From Psammoneis japonica (lineage: Eukaryota): a stretch of 64,000 bases of DNA. Below are positions 4,348 to 37,987 of this stretch, in pieces; within the stretch, counting starts at the first letter, position 1; each line of letters opens with the position of its first letter. The translations under genes were made by a program, and so were the position numbers. Where the stretch lies: assembly GCA_008632985.1 (NCBI GenBank), contig QPGO01000010.1, positions 186,001 to 250,000 of the forward strand, in the 5' to 3' direction. Below the pieces are notes generated by a model, which saw only the letters and a program-made list of their open reading frames with translations, had not been told where the DNA came from and ran no database searches.

Positions 4348-6448
4348 ACGCATCGCGATTTGGAAAGGCTTTGTGTTTGTTTCCAATGTAACAATTGCAA
4401 CGGATTGTCTCTTCGGAGAGGTATTTAGCAAACGAGCGACTGCCAAGATTTGTGTTGAAAGCTACACTTTCAATCAACGAGTAATTGATTGTTGCCACAT
4501 CTGTCATTTTCCAATACTTCTACTTTCTATTTGAATAGGTAGTTCTATGTAATCATTAAAGTGGGGCTTGTGTGACACACGCCTCGGCTGCCTTTCGTAC
4601 ACTTTACTGGATGCCCAGTCCAGGCAGATGTGTCATGCACAACAACAAGCAGAGATGATCTACTAGCAAGTCAGGTATCTTTCCCACACCTGCACTGACT
4701 AAAGTTGGCGGCAAATCTGGTGAATGACTCGAAAAGTCCATTTTTACTGAACCAGCACCACCTATGACGAGATTTCGGAATGTGGGGAGAATGAAAGAGG
4801 TTGGCCGCCGGAGGTGGCCCAGAAGAATAAACTGAAATGGAGAAAAGGAAAAGAGAGAGAGAGGGAAAAGCAGGAAAGATGAGAAAAAGAGAAGGTGTTG
4901 TCAGGCCATCAACTTGTGGTCCTTGGCTTGGCTTGTCTGCAATGTAGCTTGTCAGTGACTTGAGGTGCTGTGGCTTTGTGCTTGACAGCAGAGCTCCCAC
5001 AGCATGAAACCATGCAGTTGTGTCAGCAAGGGACAGCTTGACAATGACATCTTTCTTTGTGAGAGTGTTTTGCTGCATGCCTGTCATGGCTTCTTGGAAG
5101 GCTTTTGTCCAAGCCTTGCTCCACCAGCTGGGCAGCTGCTGTGTGGATCTGCACCTTTTTCATTCTCCAAAAAATTGGTGCATGTCTTGACAGGCTTGGC
5201 TCCATTGCACTCATGCAATTCTCTTGAGTCTCTGTCTGAGTCAGAAGACATGGTGTCATCCTCTTCAAAAGCTCTTCACAAATCTCCTCAGTGGCAAGTG
5301 CTTCCCCACCCTTGCCAACAGCAGTGTCTCTCTCAACAAATTCAGAGCATCTCTCCCAAAGCATCAGGTGTGGATGCTGTGCCCAACTTGTCACAAAGTC
5401 ATGAGAGATTTCGCAAGATCCACACCATCGCCAGCTGCAGGGGGGGCTCCAGCACAGCTGTGGCTGCAGCTTCAAATGGCAGACAAGAGCCCTCAAGATG
5501 GGAGCTCTGTGGTTGTGTCCAGCTGTGGTTTGGGTGTGGACTTCTTCTTCCAGCCTGCCTCATTGTGAAATTTTCTGCAGTGCCAAGGAAAGGGGGCTTT
5601 GACACCTCATGACTCTTTGTCCCATTCTTGCCAGAGCATGTGCAATGGAGTTTTTCATTTCATCAGGAGAGGACCCCTGCAAAGCTCCTGAGTTCCTGCT
5701 GGGACCTCAAATTTACCTGCAGCATTGTTCATTCCCACTGCACTCCACTTCAAATTTTTGGTGCAAGCACCCAGGGCAATGGTCAGCTGAGCAAGACCTG
5801 ACTGTCTGCAGCACTTCTCAGCTCACATCTCTGGCCTTCTGACATGTCCTTCAAAGCACCCTGAGAGAAGTGCTTGTGGATCTGCTGGCCCAATTTGCCT
5901 CTGAGGATCATCTCTTTTTGATTTCCACATGCATTTCCTCCACATTGTTGACTTGTGCAAGTGTGTCAGTTGCTTGTGCCGATGGAACAGTGAAGAAGGG
6001 TCCAAAGTTGACGCCATTGCATGCCCTGAGCTTCGCTTCTTCTCACGTCTTCTGAATCTTGTCAATCAACGCATGTTTTGTTTAATCTGTTGAGAGCAAC
6101 TTGCACTCAAATGATTGAACAAAACATTGTTCATGTCTTTTTCAAGATTCAATTTGCATGTGAGAGTGTCAATTGACGTCATTTGTTGACTCACACACAG
6201 CCACAAATTGCTCATCAGAAAACTGAACTCTCATCTTGTGGCACAATTTGGCAATCAACAACTTGGTCCATCCACAGTTTCCAATGCATGGGCACATGCA
6301 TGAGACCTTTCCGCATGCACCCATGACAACACATTTGAAAATCATTGTGTTTTAACTGTCGAAAACTGCGCCGTAAGTTTGGGCTGCACATTTCCTGCAA
6401 AAAGGGGCATTTTTTAGCACGCACACACCCAAGAAGTCTGGAGCAAGT

Positions 6449-7465
6449 CTTGCCAAAGTTGACAAACTCACCAAAGTTGACAAACTTGCCAAAGTCAACA
6501 AACTTGCCAAAGTCAACAAACTTGCCAAAGTCAACAAACTTGCCAAAGTCAGCAAACTTGCCAAAGTCAACAAACTCGCCAAAGTTGACAAACTTGCCAA
6601 AAGTCAACAAACTTGCCAAAAGTCAAAAAAGGTCACAAACTTGCCAAAATTGACAAACTTGCCAAAGTCAACAAAGTTGACAAACTCGCCAAAGTCAACA
6701 AACTTGCTGCAAAGTTGACAAAGTTGCCAAAGTCAACAAAAGTTGACAAACTCCCCAAAGTTGACAAGCTTGACAAAGTCGCCAAACTTGACAAAGTCGC
6801 AAAAGTTGAAGAACTTGCCAGAGTTGACAAAGTCACCAAAGTTGACAAAGTTGACAAACTCACCAAAGTTGGAGCAAAGCCAGCAATTTCACCAAGGTCG
6901 CCCAAGTTGACAAAGTCACCAAACTTGCCAAACTTTAAAAAGTTGCCAAAGTCAAGAAAAGTGACAAAGTTGGCAAAGTTGGCAAAGTTGACAAAGTCAC
7001 CAAACTCGCCAAACTTGCAAGAGTTGCCAAAGCCAGCAAAGTTGACAGGTGTGACGAAGCCCCCAAAGCCAGCAAAGCCAACAATGTTGCCAAAGCTGAC
7101 AAAGCTGCCAAAGTCAAGAATGTTGACCAAGTCAGCAAAGTTGACAAAGTTGCCAAACTTGCAAAAGTTGCCAAAGTCAGCAAAGATCACAAAGCTGCCA
7201 AACTTGGCAAGAGTTGACAAAGTCACCAAAGTCAGCAAAGTTGACAAAGTCAACAAAGTCACCAAACTTGCCAAACTTGCAAAAGTCCCTAAAGTCAGCA
7301 AAGTTGACAAAGTTGCCAAACTTGCAAAAGTTGACAAAGCCACCAAACTTGACAAGCATTGACAAGAAAGTCTCCAAACTTGACAAGAGTTGACAAAATC
7401 ACCAAAGTCAGCAAGGTTGCCAAAGTCACCACAAACTGAGCAAAATCAACAAACTTGACAAAGTC
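6449..7465. repeat. ~1-kb degenerate tandem array of 9-bp units (ttgccaaag/ttgacaaag/tcaacaaac/tcaccaaag), locally 18-bp period
   Basis: Directly visible, e.g. (aagtcaacaaacttgcca)n at ~6490-6560; gives KVDK/LTLAS low-complexity translations in several frames. Confidence 0.95.
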
Positions 7466-7967
7466 ATGTCTGCAAAATGTTTTCTCTCTCAAGCATGTGA
7501 AAAGCACTTTGTGTTGTGTTGCAACAGTGCACCCCCAAGAAACTTTTTCTGCACCTGATTTTTGTGATGCGGGGCATCGTGAGGTGTTTTATGTGGGTTG
7601 TTTGCACTTGTGGATTGGAGCATCAGCATCAAATGTTCTGTCATTTTGCATCAACAGCAACGGTGTTCTTCAATGGTTTGTGATGTTGCTTGACTTGCAG
7701 CTGGGCTTTGCACCCAAATGCCCCAAATGTTTGGCTTGATTTCAGCATTTTTGTTGTTGTTTGTTGTGTTGTGAGCACAATTGTTTGGTGCTGACACACA
7801 GTGTTGCCACCAACAAATGATGTCATTTGCACTCATCTCAACATTGCTGCTAATTCTGGCTGCCACGTGATTTCAGCGCTGCCTTGTTTTTCTCTTTTTT
7901 GTGTTGCCTTGTGTTGCCCACATTGTCCTGCCTTGTTTGTGCTGTCCTGTGCCCTTCCATTTGCATG

Positions 7968-8446
7968 TCAGCTCAGAACTTTGTGCCTCATGATCTTTCC
8001 TCTTGTTGCAGCATGCTGTTTTGAGCACGTGATTTTTTCAAATCTTCAATTTGTGTCACTCGCCGGACCTGTTTTCAGTCTCTCACCTGCCTGTGTCTTT
8101 GCAGCAGCAGGTGTTTTCACCATCAGGGACAAATTTGTTTGAGCGTTTTGGCTTTTTTGAGTCATGTGCTCTTTTCTCAATAAAAAAAGAGTTTGTCAAG
8201 TGATGGTCATTCACTGTTGCACTGTCCCACATCCTTCCATGTTTGCACCACAGCTGAGAACTTTGTGTCTCACCATCTTCCCTCTTGTTGCAGCGCACTG
8301 TTTTTTTTTTCACTGTTTTTCAAATCTTCAACTTGTGTCACTCACCAGACTTTTTTTGTGCCTCACCTGCCCATGTCTTTGCAGTGGCAGGTGTTTTCAC
8401 CTTCAGGGACAAATTTGCACAAAAATTGTGTGCTCTTTTCTCAACT
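7968..8446. repeat. Direct repeat, ~200-bp copies at ~7968-8180 and ~8250-8446
   Basis: Shared cagct.agaactttgtg...cctcttgttgcagc...ttttcaaatcttcaa.ttgtgtcactc...caggtgttttcacc.tcagggacaaatttg. Confidence 0.85.
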
Positions 8447-11400
8447 GAAAAGGGAGTTGCTTGCAGTTGTGCTGTTGATGTGCTTTCATCATCCCAGGTG
8501 GGTCAGGGGCCCACGATGTGTTCCGGCCCCAGCAGGTGATGCACAAAACAACAGCCCCTTTTGATCATGATTTAAATGAGCTTTGTGCATTGAGGCTGTT
8601 CACAAAAATGCTTGTGCATTCTGGCTTTTGTGTTTGACATGAGTGCAAACATTCAAACATTTTTTCAATGGCACCCAAGTCTTCATGGAGCACATGTCAT
8701 AAAATGTTTCTGTGGAAACAATGCTGACTGTGTGCCAGCATTCATGTTGCAGAAGTTTTTGTGTGAGCAGACTGCTGCTGTGAAATGTGCTCCAAATTTT
8801 TTCATGTTAACCTTCAAACAGTGATGGCACATTGATCCTCAAAAATTTTGGCAAAAATCATCCATTCTGTTGCAACTCATTCACCACAATGAAAAACATT
8901 GGCCACACAAAAATGACAATGTTGCAACACTGACATGAATCTTGTTGGTGTTGCCAAACATGAAAATTTGGTCAAACCTGTGCTTTTTGTGGTGAAAGCT
9001 TGTTCGCAAGTCAGAGGCTGCATGAAAATTGCACAAATGTCTTTTTTCTGCATGCTTTGGATCACGTGTGGCTGGAACATTGCACCAAGGTTGGACAATG
9101 TGTCCATCTGTCTTCTGCTGCTGTGCAAACTGCCACCCAAATGATGTCACACCCAGCGATGCTGACAATTTGTTCTTTTGAAGGTGGGATTTGCCAAAAA
9201 CAACAAAGATGCTCTTGATTTTTTTGTTGCCATCTGGGATTTGTCCCAAGGTTGCATTTCCACCCACTTGCAGCAAATCACACAACAATGAGGTGTTTGT
9301 TGTGCACCCTGTGCACAAACCTTTCAGCGCAACAAGCAACTTTTCAATGCATGCCAAAGCTTGGCTCAATCAAGAAGAACAGACACTTTTGTCATGAGCT
9401 TCTCATCCTGCTCCTTGCCATCATCAGCAAGAATGGACTTTTTTGTTGCAAGCTTTGCCCTGCTGCAGCTGCTGCTGCTGCAAGCTCCCAGCAAAAAAAG
9501 AGTGGCCACACCTGCTTTTTTTAAACTCTGCTCCGTGCAAGCCCCCAGGGAGGAGCAAGGGCTTTTTGTTGCAAGCGGTTGCCAGCATCAGCCAGCAACC
9601 TCCAGCTGCGACCCAGGCCATGCATGTGTCAGCAAACAGCCTTGTTCTGAGCTCCACCAGCTTTTGGTGTAGAGGCAGTGGTGGCACAGTGCATGGAGCC
9701 TGTGTGCGGGGTTGCTTCTTGTGGCACTGGGCTGGTGTCAAGAGGAGGCAGGAGGCACAGGCTGCTGACCATCTTGCTTGTCATGCGGTGTCATCCACAG
9801 TTGTGAGCTGCAAGAGCTTTGGTGATGCTGTTCCCACAATGGCTTGTTGTCTGCTTGTGTGCACCCCCTTTCCAATGTGGCAGCAGGCAGAGAACAAAAA
9901 AGAAAAGTGTTTTGCAGCATGTGGGGGTTGGCAGCACCAAGAGCACAGCCAAACTGTTTTGTCCACTCCTTGCCAGTTTTGAAAAGAACAAGAGAATCCT
10001 CCTGAAATCTGCAAGGACTGTCTTTGTTGCTGCACCTTGCTGCAACTTCACAAGGTGCTGCAAGATGTGACTGGACAAGCTGCTCTCTGCTGCATGAGAG
10101 ATCACCCCTGCAAAGTGGTTGGTCGCATTTTCACCATTGTGCTCTGTGCACTCCTGATCAGCTGGATGAAAATTTCAAAAGAACTCACACATCTGAACTT
10201 GCTCTCATTTTTCATTTTTTTGCATTTGTGCATCAATGTGCTTCGTTCACTTCATTGCCTCTTTGCCTTTCCATTGGCAGCTGGCACACACCACACCTCC
10301 CCCAGTCCCCCTGGAAAGAGTGCCACATCTTGTCACAAAGGTCAGCGTGAGTCATTTTTTCACAAATCTGGTTGTGTGCCAGAGACCAAAGAAGTTTTGT
10401 CAGCATGGCAAAGCCAGATGCACAGTGCATGGGTTCCTGGCAAATGAGAAACACGTCCAGAGTCCAGAGGCAATGGTTTTGTGTGCAGCTGAAAGGCCTC
10501 TTGAAAATTGTGACAGCAAAGCATTCTGGCACCAGGAGGAACCAGGAGCAATCAAATTGGCAGCAGAGCTGCTCTTGGCATGACAGAAAAACAGGCTTGC
10601 AGTTGATTGTTCAGGCAAAAAAGAGGAGAGTTGGTGGCACATTGCCCAAGAACTCTTGTTTCTCTTGTCACATGCTTTTGTGGTGCAAGACTTTCCTCTC
10701 ATTGGCTCTGCACACAATGCTTTCTTTGGCCACTGGCAAGGCCACAAATGTCATGTGTTCTTTTGACAGCTCAGATGTTCAAATTGTTGAGACCAACAGC
10801 CAAACAGATGGTTCACAAAGCCTGGCATGCTGAGTGTGAAACCACATGCTGCAATCTGCACCACCATGATGTTGTGGTCTCTGTTGCCTTCTGTTTTCCA
10901 TCTGTGGTTGTTCTTGCCAGACCCAGCAGTGAGGCAGAGTGAATGCTTCAACAGAACAAGCAAGCTGCAGAGCAAGATTTGGAAGTTGTCATTGTGATCT
11001 GCACTGGCTCAGGAAAACAATGTTGTCTCCAAGGGAGAGCTTTCAGTGGTGTGGTGGCTTCTCATGAGCTTGCTCAAAATTCACATGTCGTTGTGGGCTG
11101 GAACAATGTGTGCTGCACCCGCCATGATCTGGCACTCTCGCAGGCGGGCTTTTTTCAGGCAAACAAGGGCTCACTCAGTCATTGCTCTGCCACAGAGAAT
11201 GTGACATTTACTTTGAAAGTGTGGTGCCACCCTGATTGTCAAGAAAATCTGTGTCCCAGATCATTGTTCAGGGCAGGTGCAGATTTGCACAGTTTCTGCA
11301 GAAGTGGGTGCGCAGATTGTCAAAAAGCACAGATTTTCATCAATCATGCCAAACCCAGCATTGGGTTTTGTCAGATTTGAAGAACCCCTCCCCAGGTGGG

Positions 11401-11869
11401 CTGGAGCATTCTGCGTGCATCCTCCTGTGCACATTTGCACTGGGGCACAGATTCCAGAGATTTCCGTTCAGATTCAGAGCAGGTGGTGCAGATTTTTTCA
11501 AGCCCCCCCAAAACAGGTGCAGATTCTCATTTTCGCACTGATTTTCTGTGACAATCAGGGTGCAAGCCTCTTGGCTCAGGCACTCACGGAAGAACAGGGC
11601 CTCTGTCATGTCAGCTGCCAGCTGCACAGAGCTGCTAGAGAGTAGAGCGACAGAGGGCAAGGTCACAAATCTTCGAGAAGATTGCGATCATTCTTCCGCG
11701 CGCCATCGAGCTCTCGCTCCGGTCAAAACGTGCGCGCCATTTTCCACCGTCGGGTCATTCGCTTGATTTCGTTTCGCTTCGACGCATTCCTCATGCTTGC
11801 TGTCATATCACCGGTGCAGCGCTGACATTGTTGCTCTTGCTTTGCCCGCTCTTGTCTCTGCTTCAAAGT

Positions 11870-13330
11870 ATGAATAGCCGAATGCCCTCTACTGCTCCTG
11901 CCAACGGGTGGTCTTCGCTCCAGCCGTCATTGAATCATCATCCGCACCAACTCTACACCCGCGGCGCCAGACGGCCACAGGCACTAGTATCGCAGCAGGC
12001 ACCGCAGGAGATGACGACGGAGGAAGAATCGCTGTTCGTCCATTCGTTCATGGATTGGATAAGCAGCAAAGATCCAGCGGCTGCTTATGCGATAAGAATC
12101 TGCAGTGACCGTCGAAGCATGGAAAACTTTCTCAACCACGCCGTGTCCGGCGATGAAGAACGCGAGAATTCAGTGATTCATTTCAAAAACGGTGCTGCCA
12201 CGGCTCGGGCGTGTCTTGATGAATACAAGTGGTACTTCCAGAGGCTCAAGGATTTTGTCGAAGCCCAACAATCGGTGCTCGATCGGGCGATGCCGGAAGC
12301 AGTCGATAATGTTCGCATGACGTTGGATGAGCTGCTTGCGTTGCAGCAACACACCAAGCCTAAAGTGCTCTCCCAACAATACTTGAAGCGCAAGCTAATC
12401 AAAGATGACATTCAGCTTCACACCGTTACTTCGAATCGCTTGGCGGAGTCCATGCATCTCGGTACGTTTCAAGACATTCAAGAGCTAGATAAGTCAGAAA
12501 AGCTCGAAGTGATTTGCTTTCTATCTGCGAATAGTGTCTGTCGCGTTGACGCTGTCAAGGAAAGCATAAACTTTGCCCGAAGCATCGATGCGGTCGATGA
12601 CGAGTTCCCAATGGATCGAATATTGGGAGAAACTGGTGATAACGAAGACACTCTCGACGTGTTTATTGCCATCTACCTAGGCAAACTGCCCGATTGGGCA
12701 CGATGCTTTCGCTTTATTCGGAGGAGCGACACGGATTCATGCCAAGGTTGCTGGCTTGAAAACACCATTGCCATTGTTCATGACATCAAGGCATTTCCGA
12801 ATACCAACATGCAGCGTCTAGCTGCAGCGTCTATCGGATTTGAACCTTTCAGCACGGTGACTTCAGACCAAGCCGAAGCTTGGTTCAATCAAGAAGGACT
12901 GGCGCCTTCGTTGCAAGCCTCTGCTCCTCGCCATCACCAGCAAGGACGGACTTCTTCATTACAGGCCGCTGTTGCAAGCCTTCGGTATGGGGATTCGATT
13001 ACTTCGTTGCAAGTCGCCGCCGCCGCTGCAAACCCGCAGCAACCGGGACTTACTGGCGGTCAGGGAGCTCAACCTCAGCCCACGGTTCAGTATGGCATGC
13101 AGCCTGAGCCAGACACGATGAGCTCTCATCAAGTACCTGAGCAGGTGCTTTCGGATAATGCGGTTACTTCTGGTGATGAGAGGAGCCAGCCAGCTCTGGC
13201 TGCGACCCGTACTGTTCGCTTTGGCGGAACAACTGTGCAACTCCCGGTGATTTCTGGTGGAATGCCTGCTGCTTCAAACAGAGAAAGCAACAATCAAGAC
13301 AACGATTCCTCGTCGCAAATTTCTAGCTAG
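11870..13330 (+). CDS. Hypothetical protein (~486 aa, apparently intronless)
   Basis: Long uninterrupted ORF in normal-composition DNA (Tyr, CpG and TpA present); globular-looking middle and Q/P/S-rich tail; no family recognised. Confidence 0.7.
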   Translation: MNSRMPSTAPANGWSSLQPSLNHHPHQLYTRGARRPQALVSQQAPQEMTTEEESLFVHSFMDWISSKDPAAAYAIRICSDRRSMENFLNHAVSGDEERENSVIHFKNGAATARACLDEYKWYFQRLKDFVEAQQSVLDRAMPEAVDNVRMTLDELLALQQHTKPKVLSQQYLKRKLIKDDIQLHTVTSNRLAESMHLGTFQDIQELDKSEKLEVICFLSANSVCRVDAVKESINFARSIDAVDDEFPMDRILGETGDNEDTLDVFIAIYLGKLPDWARCFRFIRRSDTDSCQGCWLENTIAIVHDIKAFPNTNMQRLAAASIGFEPFSTVTSDQAEAWFNQEGLAPSLQASAPRHHQQGRTSSLQAAVASLRYGDSITSLQVAAAAANPQQPGLTGGQGAQPQPTVQYGMQPEPDTMSSHQVPEQVLSDNAVTSGDERSQPALAATRTVRFGGTTVQLPVISGGMPAASNRESNNQDNDSSSQISS

Positions 13331-16300
13331 CCTACTTTTGCGTCAATCGCGTGTCGTACCAGTTTCCATGGTTGACGACAAGAACTTTTGGACATTGCAT
13401 ATTCCCTTCACTACTCGCATCATACAACTATGGTGCCATAACCATACTAGCATAATCTTTGTAGAATATTTTCCTCTACGAGTAAACCAAAGGAGTCTGT
13501 ACTTGTGCATTCTATTCGATCGACTTTGGCGTCGAAACAGAAGATGTATGCTTCAGCTATGTAGTACTTTCTATCTGCTGTTTACTGTCCGAGTTTTCGA
13601 AAGGGTGTTCACTTCCCCTCAATCTAGCCGGGTATATCACACAGTATCCAACTAGCTAGAGTAGATAACCAACGATACAATCGGTCAGAACAATTGCCGA
13701 TCATGCGAAAGCATCGTCGCATAATCGCTGAGCCACATTCTCGTGAGGCAAACGTGAGGAGATTACAACGACACCAACGTACTTAGTGTTTCCATATCAT
13801 TACTTGCCAGAACGTACCGTAGGGCCCTAGGCTTCAAGAGAATGAACATGGGGACTCAAGATCAAACGAATCATTTTCAAGCTTTCCTCCCTAGATAGGA
13901 AACCGCCAAAATTACAGCTCATATCACGGTAAACGTTCGAGTATCAAAAATGGAGATCAACACACTCCAGGCTACCAAACTAAAGCTACATCTTCAGCAA
14001 TGGGTGTACGTGCACCAGCTTCCCCTGATCCCTTGACACTAGAAGTATATCGTAATTACACGACTCGCACAGTCTCAATCATAAAAGGTTTGACCCAGGA
14101 CAAAACACAGAAAAAATCGCGACCAAGGAACATATCACCATATCATAGAGGCCTCTGGTGGCTAATCTGGCTTCAAAAGACGCGTCGAGCGTTTTACCGA
14201 CACACAGCAAGGTCTTCCCTCAACCAACATGACTTTGCATGACGCATCGTCATTGCGCATCGTACGCCATAGAGTCGAATCCAACCGTCTCAGTGTATTC
14301 CCTTCGTAATCTCGCTCGCAAAGTTTCTGGGTCTGATGAACTGATGAAATGGCTCTGATCTGATGAAGTGCTAAAATCAGGTCGACAACAGTGGCAATAA
14401 AAGGTCGTATCATTGAAACCACCGTACTGTACCTAGAAATGTGGGGAGGGAGCAGGAGCGGGGCATTTTTTTTACCTGGTGTGGGCAGCAGGTTTTGATT
14501 AACTCGACTCGAGCGAAGCGAGAGGAGTCGTCATGTCACAAAAGTAACCCGGATGTTAAAGTGGGGGAGAACTGACAACTGCACAAGCAACCATTGTCAA
14601 AGGCAGCTGCACTCAAGGACAAGGAACAACATGCAAAGCAAAATGCAACATGCAGACAAGGAGCTTGTGCAGAAACAAAGTGTCCAGCCACACCAGCACC
14701 AGTGGAGGAGGCCACAAGAGGAGGCAGAGCAACACAAGGAAGCAAAAAGAGAAAAGCCACCAGAGGGGACAAGAGCCTGCACAGAGGACAGCGGCATGTG
14801 CTGTGCCTTGAAGAACCAAGTGGAAGGGGTGAACAGAATGCCAAAAAGGGGAAATTGTGAGACTCTGTTTTGGGAGCTGAAAGCAAGCAGTTGTGAGATG
14901 CTTTGCAGCACAACCCAGCAAAAGCTCGTTGCCGCCCCGGCAGGCCAGCCAAGAATCTCTGTGTGTCATCCATGGCCAAGCAGCAGCACCCTGAAAAGTG
15001 TTTCAACACCACTTTGGGGTGTGAACCAGTTGTCATTGAGAGCTGTGCCTTGCAAAAAACTGCTCCAGTGCTTGTCAGCAAATCTCCGAGCATGTGCGAA
15101 AGCACCGGAGCTTGCTGAAGATGTCTCTCTGCTTCTGTGCGCTGCTTCTGTCAAATGAGAGCACAAGCATGTGCTCCACAACCTCTTTGCAGAGCTGGGC
15201 AATTGTCTTTGCAGCTTTGGTGTTTGGTGCAGAGCTCCAAGCACAGTGCTTTTCTGTGGCACCAACAATGTCACGGGCAAGAGCAGCAATGTCCGCAGCA
15301 AAAAGCAGCTCTGCTTGTTGTGTGTTGGAGCAGCAAGCAGCCAGAGCAACAACAACAAAAAGAAAAAGATGAAAAGAGCAGAAGTTCACAGGCATGCAGC
15401 ATCTGAGGTGCCCAGAAATGATCTCCAGCATGTGCCAGCACAAGACAAGCAGCGGCAAAAGCAGGGTGAGACAACAAAGGCTTGCTTTGATGAGGATGGC
15501 ATGGGGGGCACAAAGTCAAGAAGCTGCACAGAGAGAAGCAAGCCAACTTGATGCAGTCTTGGCACCAGGTGGTGGCTCAAGAGTGCACATCATTGTGCAC
15601 AGCCACTGCTTGTGAGGCACCAGCCAAGAGCAGCAGCAGTGCTGGCCAGCTCCCAGGAGCTGCCAGAGCTCAGCCGGCCTCTTGCATTGTCAACTCAGAA
15701 CACTTGCAAAAGAAGAAACAACAACAGAGAGACAGGAAGCAAGCAACAGCTGACAACAGCAATTCTTTCTGCTTGGAATGCCATCACATTTTCTGTGTTC
15801 ACTGTCCCAGTTGCTTGCGTTAGACTGGCGACATTTGTGACACAAGATCCGTCTTCTCCGTGCACACTGATGCGGCGGTGTAAAGCTGTGCTTAACTGAC
15901 TTGATTAAAATGACAAAGGGCAATGTGTGATGACTCAAAAAAGCACCCCGTCAAGCAAGCAAAAATTTGCCTTTATCCCCACTCGGGCAAAATGTCGAAC
16001 CACTCAGTGGTTCGCAACTTGTGCAACGTGAAACTGGCGACTGACACGACAAAGTAGCACCCACACACACATGACCTTTTGACAGAGTCAAGGAAACATT
16101 GTTGCCAGTGCATCATGTTGTCAGCAACCACTTGTGTGTGAAGCACGCAATCACTCAGAGGATGACCTTCCACATCAGCATTGTCGTCATGTGCGGCATC
16201 CCACACTGTTTGACGACCTGCCAAGGAGCGGCACATTCTTGGCATTCGTCTGAAGACCAGAAAGTGTCAATCACTCTTCAATGACATCCAACGCTTCTGC

Positions 16301-20600: not shown

Positions 20601-22769
20601 GGCTCAGCTGTGCACAATTTGCCCTGATTGTCATCAAAAATCTGCTTTGATTTCAGAATCTGTGAGAAGCTCATTTGGGGGCTGAATGAAATCTGCAAGT
20701 CATTGACCACCAAGTGGTTGGTGATTGCAGACTTTTTCATGTCGTCGGGCAGTCGGGGGGTTGGGCAGTTGGGGGGGCGGGCAGTCCATCTGAATTTGAA
20801 AGTGTGTGTCCCTGGGATTTTGGAACGGCATGGGTTGTTCAGCGCAAATGAATCATTCGATTGTCAGAATGATCATTGAGGACATTGGAGGTCATGAGGA
20901 CATCCTAAAAAATTGACAAATTCCTGCAACGGGCACGTGGAACGGTTTTTTGGGAGAGCTCGAAAGTGCTGTAAAATTGGGATTGCCGGCGTGGCATGTT
21001 GAAAACTGCACTCAGCCTAAATGAAGACAATCAATCATGAACTGCACATGAAACAGTCACATTGGGGAAAACATGTCAAACAACAAGTGTGTTTGTGCAA
21101 TGCGCTGTTGTGGCAATAAATTGGAAAAAAAAGAGTGTCTGTGCACCTTGCTGCAGCCCCAAAAATGGCGTGAGACATCAAACACAATGGTCACCCGCAT
21201 CACCGGTGCGGTGGCCACACCACTCTGCTGCCACAATGCCGGCCATGGGCACTTGTGCAGCAGGGCCCTGCGTGTGCATGAGCACAGGCAACACAGCATG
21301 CAATGGCACACACCCACACCCACAAAGAAAGACAAGTGGTCAATGCTCCCCGCAGGCCTGGCTCTGATTGACTGCTGCTGACAGCTGACTTGGCCACAAA
21401 TGCGGTTTCTGTTTGACAGATGACCTCAAGCTTCTTTTCACAGAGCACCCCAACAGACCAACCAACGTTAACCTGAGTTGAAGGCACAGATGAATTTGGG
21501 GTGACAAGAAGCCTCTGTTTGTGTCAAGGGCTCATTCATGGTGAACAAATTGATTTTGACAATCAATTGAATCAGCAAAGCAGGAAACCAGACTCAAAGA
21601 AATTTGGTGTTCTTCTTGTTGCAGTGCATGGGCTCTTGACAAGACTTGTTTTAAGCTTGACAGCATGACCGCATCAACTGCGGGCATTGGAGCATCAGCT
21701 GTCAACCAAATGAGCAAAGCAAGAAACCATCTGTGCACACAGCCAAGTTGATCTGGTGGATTGTTGCTGTGTGCTGGCTGGAGCACTCTGACAATTTCAG
21801 CTGTCCAGTTGTCATCAGCTCTGGCGCAAATGATGTGGTTTTGGTTTCTGATGATGTTTGTTGTCTGCCCTGGCAATGTTCAACATTTGGCACATGCTCT
21901 GATGCTCTTGTGCTCTTGTTCCATGCTGTCATGCTGTTGCCTTTGCTTCCTCTGTTCTTTGAGCCACCACCCATTGTTTGTTGCAGTCTGACCCACATCT
22001 TGGTGTTTGTGTTCCAATCTTTCACATTTCAAAGAGAGTCAGTTTTTGTGACAGCTTTTCATTGCAAGACATGAAAGCAAAATCCTTGGAAGAAAACAGC
22101 AGAGAAGTTGTCAGTTTGGCTTTTTTTTCAAGCATGGCACAATGCTGCTGTTTCTGCTTGCCTGTGTGCAGTGGTGCAGCACTTTGTTTCTCATCCTTGG
22201 CCATTTTTGCCAACTTGTCCAAGTTTCAAGGGGGGGGGGGGGGATGAAAGAAAAGCATCAGTTTGTTGTTGTTTGCTCTGCATTGCCTGCGCCTGCTGCA
22301 CCACACTTCAGACCTCTTGCATTTCCCATGGCATTTCTTTGCTGGCATGTGCAGAGTCCTGGGTGTTGTTGGTGCCTTCCTGTGCAGTGTCATCATTGTG
22401 CACTGCTTGGCTGCATCCTGTGTTTTTGTGTTGTTTTGTGTGGTGGTGGATGTGCCATTTTGCCACAGAACAAAGCTGGCCAGCCTGGTGATCACTGCAC
22501 TGCCTGTGTCATTTTGCAAGTTGTGGCTCTTTTTGACAAGAGCCATGTTTGTTGATTTTGATTGCCAAAGCATTTTGTTCATGAACTCTCATTTGATTGG
22601 CAGCTGGGTGTTGAGCATTGTTTCAATCACACGCGCAGCACATTTCCAAAGAAGCTCCATGTCTCAGTTTTTGTGATCTCAACCAGCTCTTGTTCAGAAT
22701 GAAATTTTCAGATTTGTGCTGGTCTGTGCAGTTTGTTGGTGTCATTGTGCATGTGTGGATTCACAAATG

Positions 22770-25700
22770 CACAATGGCACCAACCAACTCAACAGCTGCA
22801 AGCCAAGGACACTGGCAGCATCTGGCAGGCTGCACAGCCATCACTTTGAGAGCTGTTGTTGGGAGTTGCAAGGTTGATCTTGTGATGGTGTGCTCCCATG
22901 TTGCCTTGTCCCCAACAGCAGCAGACTTGACTTTTTCCCAGCTCCAGCCAGAGTGAGAAGATCTCATGACAGTGCCTGCCAACCCAACAACTGCCAGCTG
23001 GGCACCAGGGGAGGGGGGGCTCCAAGAACTGCGGTTGGGTGTTGCAAGGTTGGTCTTGTGATGTTGTGGCCCTGTGTCACCTTGTCCTCATTAGAAGCAA
23101 CTCTTGCAGAGATCTCATTGTGGTGCTGACCAACCCAACAAGTGCTGGCAGAGGACTCTGGTGGCCTTTGCTGGACCCCAGGCAACACTTTGAGAACTGT
23201 GGTTGGCAGACATTGCATGGTTGATGTTGCAGTGATGTGGCCCATGTCTTGTCCTCAACAGCAGCTGACTTGAACTTCCAAACTCCAGAGTGAAAAGACC
23301 CCATGGCAGCACTGGCTTGGCTGCAAGCTGAGGGCACCAACAGTGTCCAGTGCACCCCAGATGTTTCTTTGAGCACTGTGGCTGAGCACTTCAAGGTCAA
23401 TCTTGTGGCTCTGTGGCCCCATGTCACATTGTCCCCAGCCAAAAACAGCAGCAGGCTTGACTTTCCCAGCTTCAGTGCCAGACTCCAGAGAGCAGGGATC
23501 CCACAACAGTGCCAGCCAGCCCAACAACTGCACTCGGAGGATGCTGGCGGTGTCTGGTGGACATCAGGGGACAATTTAAGAACCATGGGGCCAAGTGCTG
23601 CAAGGTTCATCTTGTGGCATTGTGGCTGCATGCGTGTCATGTCCAAAACAGCAGCAGACTTGGGCTTCCACCAAAGCAACTCCAGAGTAAAGTGGCGCCA
23701 ACCAAGTGGGCAACAGCGTGCTGAGGAGACATTGACAGTGTCTGGTGGACCCCAAGCAATGCTTTGAGAACTGTGGTTGAGCACTGCAAGGTTGATCCAG
23801 TGATGTTGTGGCACCATGTCACCTTGTCCCCACAACAGCAGCAGCAGACTTTACTTTCCCAGCTCCAGTGTGAAGGGATCCCATGACAGTGCCAGCCAAC
23901 CCAACAACTGCCAGCAGAGCACGCTGGTGGTCTCTGCTGAGCCCCAGGGGCAGCACTCTAAGAACAATGGTTGGGCATTGCAAGGTGGATCTTGTGGCAC
24001 TGAGGTTCCATGTCACCTTTCCCCAACAGAAGCAGACTCACTTGAAGCCCAGCTTCCAAACTCCAGGGTGCAGAGATCCCACTGTGGTGCCAACCAACCC
24101 AACAACTGCTGGCAGAGCATGCTGGCAGTCTTTGGTGAACCCCAGGTGACATTTTCAGAACTGTGGCTGGCAGACATTGCAAGGTTGATGTTGTGGTGTT
24201 GTGGTCCATGTCACCTTGTCCCCAAAACAGCAGACTTGACTTTCCCAGCTCCAGAGTGAAGGGATCCCATGACAGTGCCAGCCAGCCCAACAACCAACAA
24301 CTGCTGCCAGCAAAGCATGCTGGTGGTCTCCGCTGGGACCCAGGAGGGGGGGGGGGGGGGGCACTCCAAGAACTGTGGTTGGGCATTGCAAGGTTGATCT
24401 TGCAGTGTTGTGGCCCCATGTCATCTTGTCCCCAACAGAAGCAGACTTGGACTTCCAAACTGGTGCCAACCAGCCCAACAACTGCCAGCAGAGGACACTG
24501 AATCCAGGGCAAGACTTCAAAACTGTTGTTGGGCATTGCAAAGTTGATCTTGTGGCATTGTGGCCCCAGAATGTCACGCTGCATCCAACAGCAGCAGACA
24601 CAAACTTCCAAACAAGTGACAGGACCCCATGGCAGTGCCATCCAACCTGACAACAGCAAGCTGAGCAGTGTCTGGTAGACCCCAAGCAACACTTTGAGAA
24701 CTGTGGCTGATGATTGCAAGGTTTGTCTTGAAGTGTTGTGGCCCCATGTCACCTTGTTCCTGTCAGCAGCAGACTTGAATTTCCAAACTCCAGAGTGAAG
24801 GGACTCCAACATGATGGCACCAACTGACCTGACAGCCACAGACTGAGGGCACTGACAGTGTCTGATGGACCCCAGGCAACACTTCAAAAACTGTGGTTGA
24901 GCATTGAATGGCCAATTCTGTGGTGTTGTGACCCCCTGTCACCTCATCCTCAACAGCATGGCAGACTTGCCTTTCCCAGCTTTGGAGAACAGCAATCCCA
25001 TGACAGCGCCAACCAACCCAACAACTGCCCAGCAGAGCACACTGGCAGTCTCTGGTGGGCCCCAGGGGATGCTCCAAGAACAGTGATTGGGCATTGAAAG
25101 GTTGATCTTGTTGCCTTGTGGCCCCACCATGTCACCTTGTCCCTGACAGGAGAAGACTTGAGCTTCCAAGATCTAGAGTGAAAGGATTGTTCAATGGTGC
25201 CAAATGACCCATCAACTGCTGGCCAAGGGCACTGGCAGTGTCTGGTGGAGCCAGGGCAAGACCACAAAACCTGTTGTTCTTGGGCATTGAAAGGTTGATC
25301 TTGTGGCATTGTGGCCCCACAATGTCATGTTGTGTCCAACAGCAGCAGGTTTGAACTTCCAAACTCCAGAGTGAAAAGGACACCATGACAATGTCAGCCA
25401 ACCTGCCAGCAGCAAGCTGGGGACACTGGAGATGCCTGGTGGACCCCAGGCAACACTTTGAGAACTGTGGCCAAGCATTGCAAGGTTGATCTTTTGGTGT
25501 TGGGGCCCCATGTCACCTTGTTCCTGCCAGCAGCAGACTTGAACTTCCAAGCTCCAGATTGAAAGAACTCCATGATGGCACCAACTGAGCATTGGGGGTC
25601 TTTGGTGGACCCCAGGTGAGCCTTTAAGACCTGTTGTTGGGCACTGAAAGGTTCACCTTGAAGTGTTGTGGCCCCATGTCCTGTCACACCCAACAGCAGC

Positions 25701-25910
25701 AGACTTGGACTTCTGCCAAGCTCCAGTGTGAAACGACCCCCATGACAGTGCCAACCAACCTGTCGTCAGCAAGCTGAGGACACTGGCAGTGTCTGGTGGA
25801 CCCCAGATGACATGTCGAGAGCTGCAACTGAGCATTGCAAGTGCTGTTGTGGCCCCATGCTGTCACCTTGTCCACAACAGGAGCAGACTTGAACTTCCAA
25901 ACTTCTGAGT
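22770..25910. repeat. Satellite array, ~17 diverged copies of a ~185-bp unit
   Basis: The marker gcagacttg (or a variant) recurs 17 times between ~22921 and ~25883. Core: gggcattgcaaggttgatcttgtggcattgtggccccatgtcaccttgtccccaacagcagcagacttgaacttccaaactccagagtga...ggtggaccccaggcaacactttgagaactgtg. Confidence 0.93.
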
Positions 25911-26269
25911 TGCTTGTTCAAAGGTTTGGTTGCTGAGTGGCAGTGGGCGAGGAGAGCAAAGCTTCAAAGAGCAATCCAATGGGATTGCCAGAAATGCAGA
26001 GTTGTTTTGCAGTGGCAAAATGGCTTGAGGAGGAGAGCAGAGAAATTTGCACCAGCAGCATTTTTGAAACAAGTTTCTCTTCATTCAAGCCATCCTCCAT
26101 TTCATCCTGGTCTAAAGTTCAAGCAAGAGTGGATCTTGTGGGAGGGTTGGTTGGGTTGCAAGTCAGAAATGCAAGCTGAGCTTTGTTGACTGGTGAGTGC
26201 CACACAATTTTTGAAGCTTCCTTCCATGGTTGATGATGCAGTTGTTGCAGGCATCAATCATCCATGCTG

Positions 26270-27310
26270 ACCACATGCTGCTGACACTTGGAAAAGCATG
26301 GCATTCAAACAACCCTCTGCAATCTTCTACAAGGGGCAAAACTGGTGCCCTCACAGAGCAACAAGGAAGAGCTGCACAGACAGTGGACATGATTTTGTGT
26401 TTGCTGGCTGAGGTCCACTGCTGCAGCTGAAACAGAGTGCAGTGTGCAAGCACCATGGACCGAGATGTGAGCTCAAATTGCAGCCATGTTGGCTCCAGTG
26501 ACCTGGCACACCAAAAAGTGTTTGTGGCATGTTTGTTGTCAATTGACAGCTTCAAAGTGGTGTTGAAGAATGAAGTGCAGATTTAGATTGACCCATGATG
26601 CAATCTGGGTTGATGTTGGAGTTTGTCAAATTGTGGTGTGACAATGAGGCTGAGTTGGTTGATGAGCATTTCTTGTGGCAATGGGAAGCACAAATGAGAA
26701 CATGGATCAAATGACAGCTTGGCAATTGTGGGAATTGCTGCTTGACATTGTGGGTTGGGCTCTGGAGTGCAAATTGACATTCTTTGAAAGAAGGAAATGA
26801 CTCAAGTCTCAATGTCAAACAAGTTTTCTGTTGCCAAAGCCTTGTTTGCAACCACCACTCTCATGCAGTCTGGGTCCTGGAGTCAGGTGCATGGAAAACA
26901 CTCATCCTTTTTTCTCCAAAACAAGCAAGCTGGTGTGCTGACACTTGGACAAGCACAGCATCCAAACAACCCTCTGCAATTCTCTGCTGGGGGCAAAAGT
27001 GGTGCCCTCACAGAGGAACAAGGAAGAGCTGCACACACAGTTGTCAATTGACAGCTTCAAAGTGGCATTGAATGAAGTGAAGAATTAGACTGACCCGTGC
27101 TGAAATCTGGGTTGAAGTTGGAATTTTTGTCAAATTGTGATGTGATGATGAGGTTGAGTTGGTTGATGAGCATTTGCAGCAACACAGGAAGCATGATCAA
27201 CAACATGGATTGAATGACACATGACCATTGTGGGACCTGCTGACATTGTGAATTGGGCTCTGGAGTGCAAATTGGCACTCTTTGGCAGAAGGAAATGACT
27301 CAAGTTTGCA
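26270..27310. repeat. Tandem duplication (~26270-26820 and ~26930-27310, second copy with an internal deletion)
   Basis: Shared caaacaaccctctgcaat...ggggcaaaa.tggtgccctcacagag.aacaaggaagagctgcaca and gttgtcaattgacagcttcaaagtgg...gagttggttgatgagcattt...gggctctggagtgcaaattg. Confidence 0.88.
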
Positions 27311-30300
27311 GCTGGTGCATTGTTTCTTGTCACAAGGGAGCTGGGAGGTGGTTGTTCAATGAGAAGTTCATTTTGAAAGGAGAGCAGCTTCATTGTTCTC
27401 AGTCATGCAATGAGCACACAGCAGATTTCAACAAGGCAGGGTGTGCAATTGTCACATGCAAACAATCTGGATTGGTGGTGACTGCTTTGTGTGGTGCTCA
27501 ATGCAACAAAGAGCCAAGTGCAGCTGCAACACAAAAAAATGGGCAGTTGCGCTGAAGCTCTTCCACGCAAATGAGCTGGCTCTGAGCAAGATGCTGGGTC
27601 ACAAAACAAAACATTGCAAATCCATGACCATTGAAAAAACAATTTCAGCCTTGAATGACAACTTTGCCAATGACAGATTTGTGGCTGAAAATGAGTCAGT
27701 GTCAGAACATCATTCAGAGCCAGTTGCAGCAACAACCTTGCTTGATTTTTGAAAATTGTGACACCTCTGGAGAGTGCAATCACAGGTGCAAATGTTTTGA
27801 TTCATGTCAATGGTCTTCTTGTTGAGAGCAAGCAGACAGATGGTTTCCAGGTGCGCCACTGATTTCACACTGCAAACACTGGCAACTCCACCAGAACTGA
27901 CAAAAACTGGTCTGGCACAAACCAAGAACAATTGAGTTTTGTGCGCCATTGTGAAGGAGTTTGGTTTTGAAAACTGCTGAAAATGGATGGCTTCCTTCTC
28001 TTGCTGCTGTCAGGGGGCATGAGAAAAGCAAGAGTGTTGCAAGAAGCAAGGCAGAGGCACAAGGAAAAAGCCACCTTTTGAAGAGACGTCTTCAATTAAA
28101 ACATGAGTTTGCTGTTCAACACTGTCTTCTTTTGTGAGTGGCTGCATTTTTGTGCTAAATGCAAATGTCATTGCTCAAGCATGTGGTGCATGACTGTCTC
28201 ACTCATTGAAAACCATGTCATGCCTTGCATGTTTGTTGGATCAAACACTTTCAAAAGATCAAGAGGTGATGTGGGGGGCACATGTGGGCAGAGCTGCTGT
28301 CCAAAGAAATTCTGCCTCAACGACAGTGCATTTGAAGGCTTTGCCAGTTGTTGGAACACCTTGATCATGGGAGCCACAAAGGACCCAGGTGCATTGAAAA
28401 AAAGACACTTTGGCTCCTGACATGGTTCAATGGGTGACTCACAATGAGAAAAGCCTTGCTGTCACCAATCTCTCACTTTTGTTTTTCATCTCACTCTTTG
28501 GAGTGAATCATTTGGTTTGGTGTGTGATTTGTCATTCGGTGTCAGCAGGTGCCTGCCATCACACAAGTTCACAGTTTGTGCCAATGCCCTCAGCAACCCA
28601 CCACAGCTGTTGCAGTTTTCCAAGAAAGTGGCAAGTGTGAGGATGAGCAGCACAGGAAGCCCAACAGGATCCCCTTTTGTGATGTTGACTTGCTGGCTCA
28701 ACAAATCAACCTTCATGCACACAAAAAGATGTGAAGTTGTTTGCCCAGCAATCTGCCAGCAAGTTTGATGACTGAGAAAACTTCAAGTGTGCTGATTGAC
28801 AGACATTTTCAACAGTGCACAAATTTCACACAAGATTCTTAGACAGCAGCTGACCAGATGCCCCCCCCCAATGTTGTTTGTTGGCTGGTTGATGGGTCAG
28901 TTTTTCTGTTTTTACACAAGCATTTGGCGCTTGTTGCCCTCATCTAAAACCATGGGCGCATGTGACACAGCTCTCCCCAGCCCTCTCTGGTGCACCACTT
29001 CACATTGGCCTTCTCTGCAAGCAAGATGTTCTCCGCCAAATTCACCTTTGATGGACTGGTCATGCTGGGGTTGGCTTGTGGTTTGATTTGCTTTTCACGT
29101 CACTTTCTCCATGTCTGGCCCAATTGATGAAGAACCCAGCAGCCAGTGGCTGGACATTCTGCAAGAAGAAAGCATGGAAGCAGAGCCAAGGCTGGAAGCG
29201 GTGGCAAGAATGGCAACCATGTGCCTGCAAATTGTGCTGAAACTTGTGCTGCATTCTTTGTGTCTGTCAGATTTTTGTCATTTGCATTTGCCCATTTGCT
29301 CAAAAGCAAGAGAGCACCACATGAGCTGTGGTGCACTGCTTCACAGCCAAAAACCATTTCAAAAGAACAATCTCATCATTTTGATGTCTTCTGGCATTGT
29401 CCTTGCTTTTGTCTGTTGCAGGAAGCAAGAAGGTGAGGTTGCTTGAAAAACATTGTTTTTGTCAATGCCATTTCTTGGAGGTGCCCCAACAAAATTTCTT
29501 TGTCCATCACATGCAGCAACCACAACAGAGCTGGGTGGGACATGTCATGCTCTGGTGTTTGTAAAATCAGACCATGTGATTTGAGTTGCTGACTTCACAC
29601 CTTGTGGGCGCTGGTCAAGAGTGCAGAGAACATCTTGCCACTCTGCCGAGCCACTTGCTGTGGCTCAAATTGATGCTGGGCAACAATCTGAGGAGGTTCA
29701 AAACCATGTGTGGTGCTGTTTCTTGCCATCACTCTGAAGTGGTCTCTGCATGTTTGAGCCACTCATGTGAGCAAACAACCAACAACCCACTGACCCAGCC
29801 TTTTGCCTGCCCAAGTGCCCTGAAATGATGGGAGAGATGGAATGATGTGACCACCAGCGGGGCTCTTGTGCAACATGTCAACAACAAAGAGTGCAAAATC
29901 TTGTTGTGTTGAAAAAAAAACAGCACTCCTGTTGTGCTTCATGACATGAACCCCTCCCACCACACTTGGAAGGTCAGTTTGTGCTTGTTTGCGCCACACA
30001 CTTGTTGCCAAATTCTCCAATGGAGCAGCCACCAGCTGCCATTCATTGCAGCCACCCACCAGGCATGCATCCTTGGCTCAGCAGGCAAGCATGCAAGTGC
30101 ATGAGAGAGGTCTCTGAGTGATCTGCTTTCTTTCTCTCCCTCTTTTCCTTTTGGAGTGGCAAGAGCCAGACTGCCCCCGCCGGAGCTGAAAAAACTCTGG
30201 ACACTTGCAAAGTGGTTTTCCACCATCTGATCCACAGCCTGTGGCATGGCAGCATGGCTCTGCCCTCCTCTCCACACTTCAAGCCAGGCATGCCTGGGAG

Positions 30301-31284
30301 TCACGCTGTGGTCACATTTTGTGTGCTTTCCTGTGTGGTTTGCTTTTGTTTGGCTGTGTCTCTTGTTGTGCTCAACCCTGGCGCAAGTGTTCATGCCGAA
30401 TTGGAGAGTCATCATGCCAGCAGCCTTTCTGGTGTAGGCTTGGAGCCATGGGTGCAGCCATGGGGGCAGCAGGGGAGGCTCAGCTGGTCTTTGCTTTGAA
30501 CGAAATCCCCCCTCCACACATGCCATTCGAGAGCTCTTTTTCCAATGTGCAGCACTGCCACACCGGCAGATAACCTCTTGATGTGCGAATGTGCTGCTGC
30601 CTGCCAGCCACGCCCTTTTCAGTCTTGTTGAGCGTCATCGATGGAAGCCCTACATTTCGTTTTCTTATTCTTGAAGAGTGGAATCTTCTGCTATGCGCGA
30701 CCCCCAGGAAAAGGTGGTGATGCGGGAGGGAAGTTTAGAGTTGAAGATCAGAAATGCAACTGACACGCTTCCACACACATCACGCCACGTTGCACCAGCA
30801 CGGGGCGCAGCAGCAGCCGCACCTCGCCCGCATCTCACTTCATTTCCCTGCATGTGCTTCGCGTAGAGAGTGGTACAGTCTCTACGAGGAAATACTCAAC
30901 AGAACTTCACCCCGGCGCTGTGTTCAGAGCGCTGTTGACTGTTGACTGTTGACTGCTTTTCCTCGCATGCCAAGAAGAATCACCATCGAAGCCATCAAAG
31001 CACACCATCCGTGAAGCTGTGCCGTCCGATTACCGCTGCATTCTGCGATACGTCTTTTCGTGATCATTTCATATCGCAAACTTATTTGCTCAGTGCTCAG
31101 AGCCTTAGATCAGAACAAGGCGTCATATTGTTTTCTGAGTTCGGAGCATCAGTGTTGCGACGCCTCCTCCTTGCCAATCTTTTGTCGATATTAGCAGCAG
31201 AGCTCATTAGAGCAGCGCCCATAGAGCAGACTTACAACATATCATAGAGGTGAAAACTCATCCGAACGTACCCCCGGCTTAATA

Positions 31285-37909: not shown

Positions 37910-37987
37910 TCGATAATTATCGGATAATTATCGGATAATTATCGATAATTATCGATAATTATCGATAATTATCGGATGATTATCGGA
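37910..37987. repeat. Array of ~7 palindromic GATAATTATC units upstream of TPS
   Basis: tcgataattatcggataattatcggataattatcgataattatcgataattatcgataattatcggatgattatcgga; the unit is its own reverse complement. Confidence 0.95.

Follow-up and report, generated by a model that had tools for sequence, protein, structure and literature searches.

Region-restricted loss of CpG and TpA by transitions in a diatom genome: a candidate hypermutation process running opposite to repeat-induced point mutation

Two blocks almost devoid of CG and TA

The window analyzed here is a stretch of 64,000 nt from the diatom Psammoneis japonica (assembly GCA_008632985.1, contig QPGO01000010.1, positions 186,001-250,000 of the forward strand), and all coordinates below refer to it. 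It contains two blocks in which the dinucleotides CG and TA are almost absent and TG and CA are abundant, separated by an island of normal composition with a 563-aa open frame (11639-13327, + strand). The blocks hold a pseudogene of a GNAT acetyltransferase-DTW fusion, a member of the HA (helicase-associated) family and several repeat arrays, and we describe here how their composition may have arisen. The compartments are delimited as follows.

4946-11635, no strand: converted block 1, 6,690 nt, defined by sliding windows, lists of CG and TA sites and read-derived contigs
11636-14557, no strand: unconverted island, 2.9 kb, separating the blocks and normal in composition
14558-30640, no strand: converted block 2, 16,083 nt, defined by sliding windows and lists of CG and TA sites

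Across 1-kb sliding windows within the blocks, the observed/expected ratio (o/e) is 0.02-0.6 for CpG and 0.00-0.12 for TpA, and 1.6-2.4 for TpG and CpA, whereas CpG is at ~1.0 and TpA at ~0.6 outside them. Block 1 has 54 CG against 378 expected (o/e 0.15) and 16 TA against 281 expected (o/e 0.03), with CA and TG at o/e 1.85 and 1.80. Block 2 has 219 CG against 910 expected (o/e 0.23) and 49 TA against 676 expected (o/e 0.05), with CA and TG at o/e 1.82 and 1.81. Expected counts were derived from the rates of the flanks plus island, a reference of 40,950 nt in which the o/e values are 0.98 for CG, 0.62 for TA, 1.15 for CA and 1.13 for TG. The Poisson log10 P of depletion is -96 for each of the two dinucleotides in block 1, -217 for TA in block 2 and -166 for CG in block 2. 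A preliminary description of this DNA, made from the sequence alone, had noted two blocks of ~6.7 kb and ~16 kb nearly free of CG and TA between normal flanks; the counts place this pattern far beyond chance, and the site lists agree that positions 5041-5340 contain neither dinucleotide.

Three of the four block edges are abrupt, within tens of bases. On the left of block 1, the last dense TA and CG sites lie at 4809-4945 and the next CG appears only at 5412; dense sites are back at 11636 and stop again at 14557. The fourth edge, at the right end of block 2, is gradual and extends across ~100 nt (30560-30650). Forty stretches of at least 150 nt inside the blocks are free of both CG and TA (11,157 nt in total, the longest being 634 nt at 10455-11088), whereas the rest of the window has none of this length, its longest gap being 85 nt. 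A GA purine-rich tract (4840-4895) sits exactly at the left edge of block 1, either as a boundary element or by coincidence.

With TA gone, TGA is left as nearly the sole stop codon and long spurious open reading frames (ORFs) run in all six frames: TAA and TAG occur at 1.6 and 0.6 per kb in the blocks, compared with 8.9 and 9.7 per kb in the flanks.

Read-derived contigs reproduce the converted sequence

Three public sequencing runs (X1, X2 and X3), all from a single sample and a single study, were compared with the window. The single-copy word depth of X1 is ~66. Contigs built from this run agree with 4802-6055 throughout and with 7304-14453 except for a single difference, without gaps. They thereby span the left edge of block 1, most of that block, its right edge and nearly all of the island (to 14453), and stop short of the left edge of block 2 (14558), which is not bridged. 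A single X1 contig crosses from converted into normal DNA at a uniform depth of 66.6. Because these contigs match at single-copy depth, a consensus or polishing error in the block 1 sequence is excluded, and the preliminary description's concern that raw reads might fail to support these bases is answered over both segments. X2 contigs cover only parts of the window, and X3 yielded no contigs placed on it.

An artefact of sequencing, base calling or assembly, such as misread modified bases, would find some footing in the common origin of all the runs found and in the tendency of modified-base miscalls towards transitions. We nevertheless consider it extremely improbable, since the k-mer contigs of X1 reproduce both segments, one contig running at a uniform depth through converted and normal DNA, and since X1 itself contains related copies with CG or TA at the matching sites. 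A modification-dependent miscall is unlikely in particular, because a palindromic site would yield conflicting calls from the two strands, and hence a mixture of TG and CA rather than one clean version.

The blocks differ from the flanks by transitions at CG and TA

The fraction of pyrimidine-purine (YpR) steps is 0.237 and 0.244 in the two blocks and 0.241 in the flanks, and GC content is 0.46-0.49 versus 0.48. The combined share of CG and TA among dinucleotides drops from 0.099 in the flanks to 0.011-0.017 in the blocks, and that of CA and TG climbs from 0.143 to 0.227. As YpR and GC are constant and the lost CG and TA are regained as CA and TG, the change consists of transitions alone. Between blocks and flanks, k-mer spectra in the purine/pyrimidine alphabet correlate with r of 0.97-0.99.

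We modeled the conversion by turning each CG and TA of the flanks randomly into TG or CA and comparing the resulting 2- to 5-mer spectra with those of the blocks. The two-dinucleotide model reaches r of 0.92-0.97, against 0.82-0.85 when CG alone is converted and 0.65-0.76 for the unconverted flanks. TpA loss thus goes beyond what CpG decay predicts, as the preliminary description had proposed. Its further suggestion that TpA, and not WA motifs in general, is affected agrees with the o/e of AA, which is not depleted (1.22-1.43 in the blocks versus 1.13 in the flanks).

Conversion took place in situ after internal duplications

To find paralogous pairs irrespective of transitions, the sequence was reduced to purines and pyrimidines and compared with itself. 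Seven intra-block pairs have CA opposite TG at 51 of 315 aligned YpR-YpR sites (16%), compared with 1 of 190 such sites in four repeat pairs of normal DNA; an eighth block pair was self-overlapping and was dropped from the counts. A discordance of ~20% is expected if ~41% of YpR steps (the CG and TA share) were resolved independently in each copy. Judged from the aligned copies, the simplest ancestor of a CA-versus-TG double difference would be CG or TA. When sites of the CG/TA type are set aside, the transition/transversion ratio is ~1.1 for the block pairs and ~0.8 for the normal repeats; the former being near the latter, the excess belongs to CG and TA specifically.

Recruitment at a likeness of at least 80% yielded 5,035 X1 contigs, in which transitions occur at 222-253 places per class and transversions at 38-60. 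Among the best-supported 40 of 1,337 contig differences, the related contig carries CG (12) or TA (10) where the window has TG or CA in 22 cases; the reverse direction accounts for 3, other transitions for 9 and transversions for 6. For the TA arm, these best 40 of 1,337 comprise 10 sites with TA in the related copy against 1 in the opposite direction, which establishes the polarity of this arm on a limited sample and is the excess of TA to TG/CA changes anticipated by the preliminary description. Moreover, X2 contigs ~87% alike over 18083-19119 extend into sequence with CG and TA and look like an unconverted paralogue. The blocks are once-normal DNA mutated in place, after internal duplications.

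These data also bear on a mechanism that the preliminary description had put forward, namely error-prone patch repair, in which T:G mismatches arising from deamination of 5-methylcytosine (5mC) recruit mismatch repair and the Y-family enzyme polymerase eta, which miscopies WA, in the manner of antibody hypermutation during its A:T phase. This scheme would tie both arms to one trigger in methylated DNA, and polymerase eta prefers A to G changes at TA and AA motifs. In contrast with this expectation, the YpR fraction is conserved, with essentially no transversions at TA; the transition/transversion ratio given above, from which YpR-internal changes are removed, is close to that in normal repeats; AA is not depleted; and TA has been removed more thoroughly than CG, whereas a by-product should show the opposite order. 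Given the lack of transversions and of an effect at ApA, we disfavor patch synthesis of the polymerase eta type and hold it to be very unlikely.

A GNAT-DTW pseudogene in block 2

Block 2 contains the remains of a cellular gene and a partial copy of it.

18001-19434, - strand: GNAT acetyltransferase-DTW fusion pseudogene, identified by Pfam GNAT and DTW matches, HMMER and a codon test
20035-20559, - strand: partial tandem paralogue of 18992-19502 (the upstream part of the GNAT-DTW gene), with a purine/pyrimidine identity of 86%

The ORFs 18649-19434 and 18256-18645 (- strand) hold the GNAT and DTW domains (Pfam), respectively, and lie in the same frame, split by a TGA. A word-seeded protein search with the GNAT ORF returned 200 candidates, none at E ≤0.001, and an exhaustive HMMER search returned 104 matches at E ≤0.001, headed by the proteins P0002 (E 9.7e-83) and P0003 (E 3.2e-64), each of which aligns as a single stretch over the TGA stop. 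P0002 is a 399-aa protein with PF13673/PF13508/PF00583 plus PF03942, that is, a fusion of GNAT followed by DTW. The named sources of homologues are the diatoms Cyclotella cf. meneghiniana and Fragilaria crotonensis. A further search starting from P0002 brought up 34 members of the family, none of them nearer to the pseudogene than 51%. The single match of the DTW ORF in the PDB, 9kyt_A, is weak (E 0.0012) and serves as an illustration only.

The pseudogene carries the imprint expected of the conversion at the codon level. Two in-frame TGA stops occupy sites at which both P0002 and P0003 have Arg, and further stops follow downstream. Tyr makes up 0.3% of the pseudogene product versus 2.1-3.9% of the homologues, Cys 5.1% versus ~2% and Arg 5.9% versus 7.4-10.6%. 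Where Tyr has changed towards the window, it has become Cys or His in 34 of 51 cases, compared with 44 of 134 among seven normal family members; changed Arg has become Cys, Trp, His, Gln or stop in 49 of 117 cases, compared with 120 of 477, all these counts being pooled over seven homologues that are not independent. Relative to P0002, 98 of the 169 differing residues are one nucleotide step apart, and the steps are distributed as follows.

Reversion to CG (25) or TA (13): 38 of 350 opportunities, rate 0.109
Other transitions: 23 of 548 opportunities, rate 0.042
Transversions: 37 of 2304 opportunities, rate 0.016

The partial paralogue at 20035-20559 differs from 18992-19502 by 18 TG-versus-CA discordances, and the two copies were converted independently.

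Other contents of the blocks, the island and the window

Four further features are found in the blocks.

16285-17887, + strand: converted, multi-copy member of the HA family, with a Pfam HA match in ORF 17019-17564
22770-25910, - strand: array of ~190-nt (~64-aa) repeats in open frames, detected by self-comparison, with no family assigned
6450-7464, no strand: tandem array in block 1 with a period of 9/27/36 nt, found by repeat detection
9316-9454, + strand: fragment homologous to 12841-12967 of the island gene, with a score in purine/pyrimidine space of 77 against a null maximum of 50

The HA member includes three HA-like internal repeats (16737-16845, 17417-17525 and 17690-17798), and contigs at least 80% alike to it reach a summed depth of 22,757-50,410, versus 66 for single-copy sequence. 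A metagenome scan with its ORF gave 48 pattern matches, none of which was confirmed. The 64-aa repeat protein has no Pfam match, and its best score in the protein atlas, 0.86, is below the reliable range. A G-rich 16-nt tandem repeat at 20746-20786 in block 2 retains CG sites.

The island has TpA/ApT and CpG/GpC ratios of 0.61 and 0.87 and a single-copy depth of ~66. We considered that block 1 might represent the island gene as a complete, converted paralogue and rejected this idea, because none of 47 ORFs from normal regions matched the blocks in tblastn; the ~140-nt fragment at 9316-9454 is the sole homology between block and normal DNA within the window.

The Pfam matches among 188 block ORFs (83 of at least 110 aa and 105 of 72-109 aa) are confined to HA, DTW, GNAT and a weak DUF7101. 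No transposon or viral domain, including reverse transcriptase, integrase and transposase, was detected in this set, and the targets, as far as these ORFs show, are not recognizable as transposons. The same result bears on the proposal that the composition is intrinsic, owing to selection or to a foreign origin such as integrated viral DNA avoiding CpG and UpA. Joint suppression of CpG and UpA does occur in RNA viruses and mRNAs (PMC3829696, from the part of the article available). Here, however, the depletion is near-total and strand-symmetric, and covers genes on both strands, arrays and stop-bearing pseudogenes. The proteins most closely related to the pseudogene are GNAT-DTW proteins of diatoms, CG and TA are found in contigs from the same sample, and the TG/CA discordance between paralogues reflects conversion in place after duplication. 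We regard this explanation as close to refuted.

Normal DNA of the window contains direct or tandem duplications that are unconverted (949-1872, 46428-46947, 49760-50206 and 62924-63122), and short local duplication alone is therefore not a trigger. Elsewhere in the window, positions 37905-37995 form a palindromic tandem array of ~10-11-nt GATAATTATC(G) units, a spacerless inverted repeat of perfect type; 56417-56585 is an inverted repeat with 49-nt arms, 94% complementary and 71 nt apart; and GC content switches abruptly within 43500-46500, from 0.39 at 43.5-44.5 kb to 0.57-0.59 at 45-46.5 kb.

Site pattern of the conversion

The outcomes are strand-symmetric (TG 2578 versus CA 2589). A runs test on the order of TG and CA gave z of +0.6, -0.4 and -1.6 for the blocks and of -2.4 and -1.2 for normal DNA, and detected no strand-coordinated tracts in the blocks; such tracts could have been erased by saturation over many rounds. 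Throughout both blocks, TA loss is ~95%, whereas CG loss is ~35-50% at 15.5-21 kb and >90% elsewhere. As TA loss is uniform while CG loss varies, the TA arm is no side effect of CG conversion.

Surviving TA is enriched in TTA/TAA (2.6-fold) and rare in ATA/TAT (0.25-fold). Surviving CG favors GCG/CGC (1.56-fold), and TCG survives least (0.71). Pure transitions at both kinds of site are compatible with deamination or with a modified thymine pairing with G. The two YpR steps that are lost, CG and TA, are self-complementary, whereas the sink into which they pass, TG/CA, is not palindromic, which suggests that a two-fold symmetric step may be recognized.

A candidate hypermutation system and its alternatives

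The best reading of these data, which we hold with moderate confidence, is that an active, targeted hypermutation system acted on the blocks. On this reading they are endogenous, formerly normal DNA (duplicated cellular genes, a member of a multi-copy family and tandem arrays) in which a hypermutation restricted to the domain and acting at the DNA level turned CpG and TpA into TpG or CpA. The data show that the changes hit either strand equally and each site independently, approach saturation for TA while remaining variable for CG, halt abruptly at the domain edges and postdate the internal duplications. Coding capacity was destroyed through loss of Tyr codons and conversion of Arg codons into stops. 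We propose that an enzyme-driven process targets a chromatin domain that is silenced or duplicated and that, like repeat-induced point mutation (RIP), it inactivates its targets permanently, although its chemistry is the inverse. Most simply, exposed exocyclic amino groups would be deaminated, C or 5mC to U or T at CpG and A to hypoxanthine at TpA; for the TA arm, thymine oxidation to 5-hydroxymethyluracil (5hmU) or 5-formyluracil (5fU), mispairing with G, may serve instead. One enzyme or two co-targeted activities might be involved, and the trigger might be homology or chromatin state. The core inference of the preliminary description, region-restricted TpA to TpG/CpA transitions on top of CpG decay and opposite in direction to RIP, is borne out, and its overall reading is supported in part.

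The main competitor, which we judge rather unlikely, is that a dead and silent domain decayed slowly and passively. It supposes that CpG is lost by 5mC deamination and TpA by a separate, context-dependent bias of replication or repair that shows up only when neither selection nor transcription-coupled repair operates. Several observations suit it: CG and TA losses are only partly coupled, with about half of CG retained at 15.5-21 kb; the blocks consist of pseudogenes and arrays without evident selection; TpA is already under-represented in the flanks (o/e 0.62); and strand coordination is absent. Against these stand the uniform TA loss of ~95% and a divergence from the related copy outside YpR steps of only a few per cent, as ~15 of the best 40 of 1,337 differences are non-YpR and the contig differs at 131 of 1,037 positions. 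Near-total TA loss beside such low divergence requires a TA rate many-fold above background. Passive decay would also have to produce edges sharp to tens of bases, and our literature search found no spontaneous TpA to TpG/CpA process, nor do we know of any. Nor did the search turn up any account of CG and TA being converted together, whether in diatoms or in other organisms, although it covered subscription journals thinly and so does not prove absence.

Several points weigh against an active, targeted system. The targeted and enzymatic character is deduced from the sharp edges and the saturation alone, and we know of no eukaryotic DNA adenine deaminase acting on chromosomal DNA. CG and TA losses are partly coupled (Spearman 0.39, p 0.008), with CG o/e ranging over 0.0-0.65 while TA is ≤0.2 everywhere, a pattern that fits two processes as well as one. 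Both blocks show residuals beyond the conversion model, with less ApT and GpA/TpC and more GpC; these shifts may be a second-order mutation bias. The polarity derives from the best-supported 40 of 1,337 contig differences as selected by the tool. X1 shares its sample and study with the other runs and is possibly the source of the assembly itself, so it does not represent an independent individual, though consensus error is excluded. The scope is one locus in one assembly. Finally, block 1 is single-copy at a likeness of at least 80% at 7836-8502 and 9170-11170, yet fully converted. Other parts of the blocks are multi-copy or have paralogues. Repetition, which the preliminary description counted among the possible targets, predicts conversion only imperfectly; a duplicate partner of the single-copy parts could have been lost.

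A broader proposal, which we advance tentatively and as less than probable, is that diatoms, or at least P. japonica, own an undescribed genome-defense mutator, an enzyme or pair of enzymes that would recognize the palindromic steps CpG and TpA in designated chromatin and turn them into TpG or CpA. Its chromosomal A:T to G:C arm would work through deamination of DNA adenine or through a modified thymine templating G. Candidate enzymes can be named on paper. Diatom DNMT4, which groups with fungal RID and occurs in 31 of the 60 diatoms surveyed, has no known function according to the available part of its description (PMC9998398). Stramenopile nucleic-acid deaminases are predicted and are called uncharacterized in the accessible text of PMC3239186. 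TET/JBP enzymes are the third candidate.

If such a process exists, TpA to TpG/CpA conversion would be a new mutational signature without known enzymology in chromosomal DNA. It could give a role to diatom DNMT4 or to the uncharacterized stramenopile deaminases, and would provide a naturally occurring activity for the context-specific editing of A:T to G:C in DNA. TAA and TAG stops, TATA-like motifs and CpG-containing motifs would be wiped from the target. The blocks also matter for the annotation of diatom genomes, since they yield long false ORFs that gene callers could mistake for genes and conceal pseudogenes from word-based homology searches. The organism is culturable, which makes the question directly testable.

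Comparison with known systems

The decay of CpG by 5mC deamination in vertebrates and plants resembles the CG arm, with CG turning into TG or CA, reciprocal gain and confinement to silenced DNA. It offers no route to the removal of TpA, however, and in the blocks a CG o/e of 0.15-0.23 is accompanied by a TA o/e of 0.03-0.05. The low survival of TCG described above recalls the TCG-targeted, RIP-like mutation of basidiomycetes (PMC3318451, as far as the accessible text of that article goes).

A-to-I editing by ADAR and ADAT and cytidine deamination by AID/APOBEC share with the blocks pure transitions, a 5'-T (5' U) context and clusters of hyper-editing that inactivate selfish sequences. ADAR and ADAT act on RNA substrates, whereas the blocks are two-stranded, multi-gene genomic DNA with tandem arrays; this, together with the lack of reverse transcriptase and integrase among the 188 block ORFs, makes retro-copied edited RNA unlikely. 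The contexts of AID/APOBEC are WRC and TC, not CpG or TpA. Hypermutation by AID and polymerase eta targets WA and produces many transversions, and the blocks display neither trait.

TET/JBP enzymes, which form 5hmU and base J in dinoflagellates and kinetoplastids, provide a likeness in the form of a thymine-directed mark on repeats. Oxidized thymine can pair with G, leading to T to C changes. In dinoflagellates, TET/JBP-made 5hmU marks repeats and silences transposons (PMC11572971), and base-resolution mapping of 5hmU in Breviolum revealed no motif (PMC11071213), each statement resting on the part of the source available. A mutational footprint comparable to that of the blocks has not been reported for these enzymes.

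RIP is the closest parallel. In Neurospora and other ascomycetes it depends on RID and DIM-2, requires a RID/DNMT4-class enzyme and a premeiotic stage and is, like the conversion described here, block-wise, near-saturating, transition-only, sharp-edged, directed at non-essential DNA and lethal to genes through stop codons. The grouping of diatom DNMT4 with fungal RID, reported in the accessible portion of PMC9998398, may provide an enzymatic link. The differences are equally clear. The host is diatom-like rather than a fungus. RIP acts only on duplicated sequence and leaves strand-coordinated tracts; in the blocks, single-copy DNA is converted as well, although a partner could have been lost, and strand-coordinated runs are absent. 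RIP makes TpA from CpA and lowers GC, whereas the blocks lose TpA, double CpA and TpG and keep their GC; RIP changes C:G to T:A only, whereas the blocks also changed A:T to G:C (10 polarized sites of TA type beside 12 of CG type among the best 40 of 1,337). RIP is diagnosed by a TpA/ApT ratio of about ≥0.89 and a (CpA+TpG)/(ApC+GpT) ratio of about ≤1.03. The two blocks give 0.052 and 0.061 for the first and 1.92 and 1.93 for the second, compared with 0.70 and 1.18 in the flanks. The indices of the blocks are the inverse of RIP, and its CpA to TpA bias is absent. To our knowledge, region-targeted hypermutation as genome defense is established only in fungi, in RIP and its relatives, and always runs from C to T; if the process proposed here is real, it would be the mirror image of RIP, inactivating duplicated genes at constant GC.

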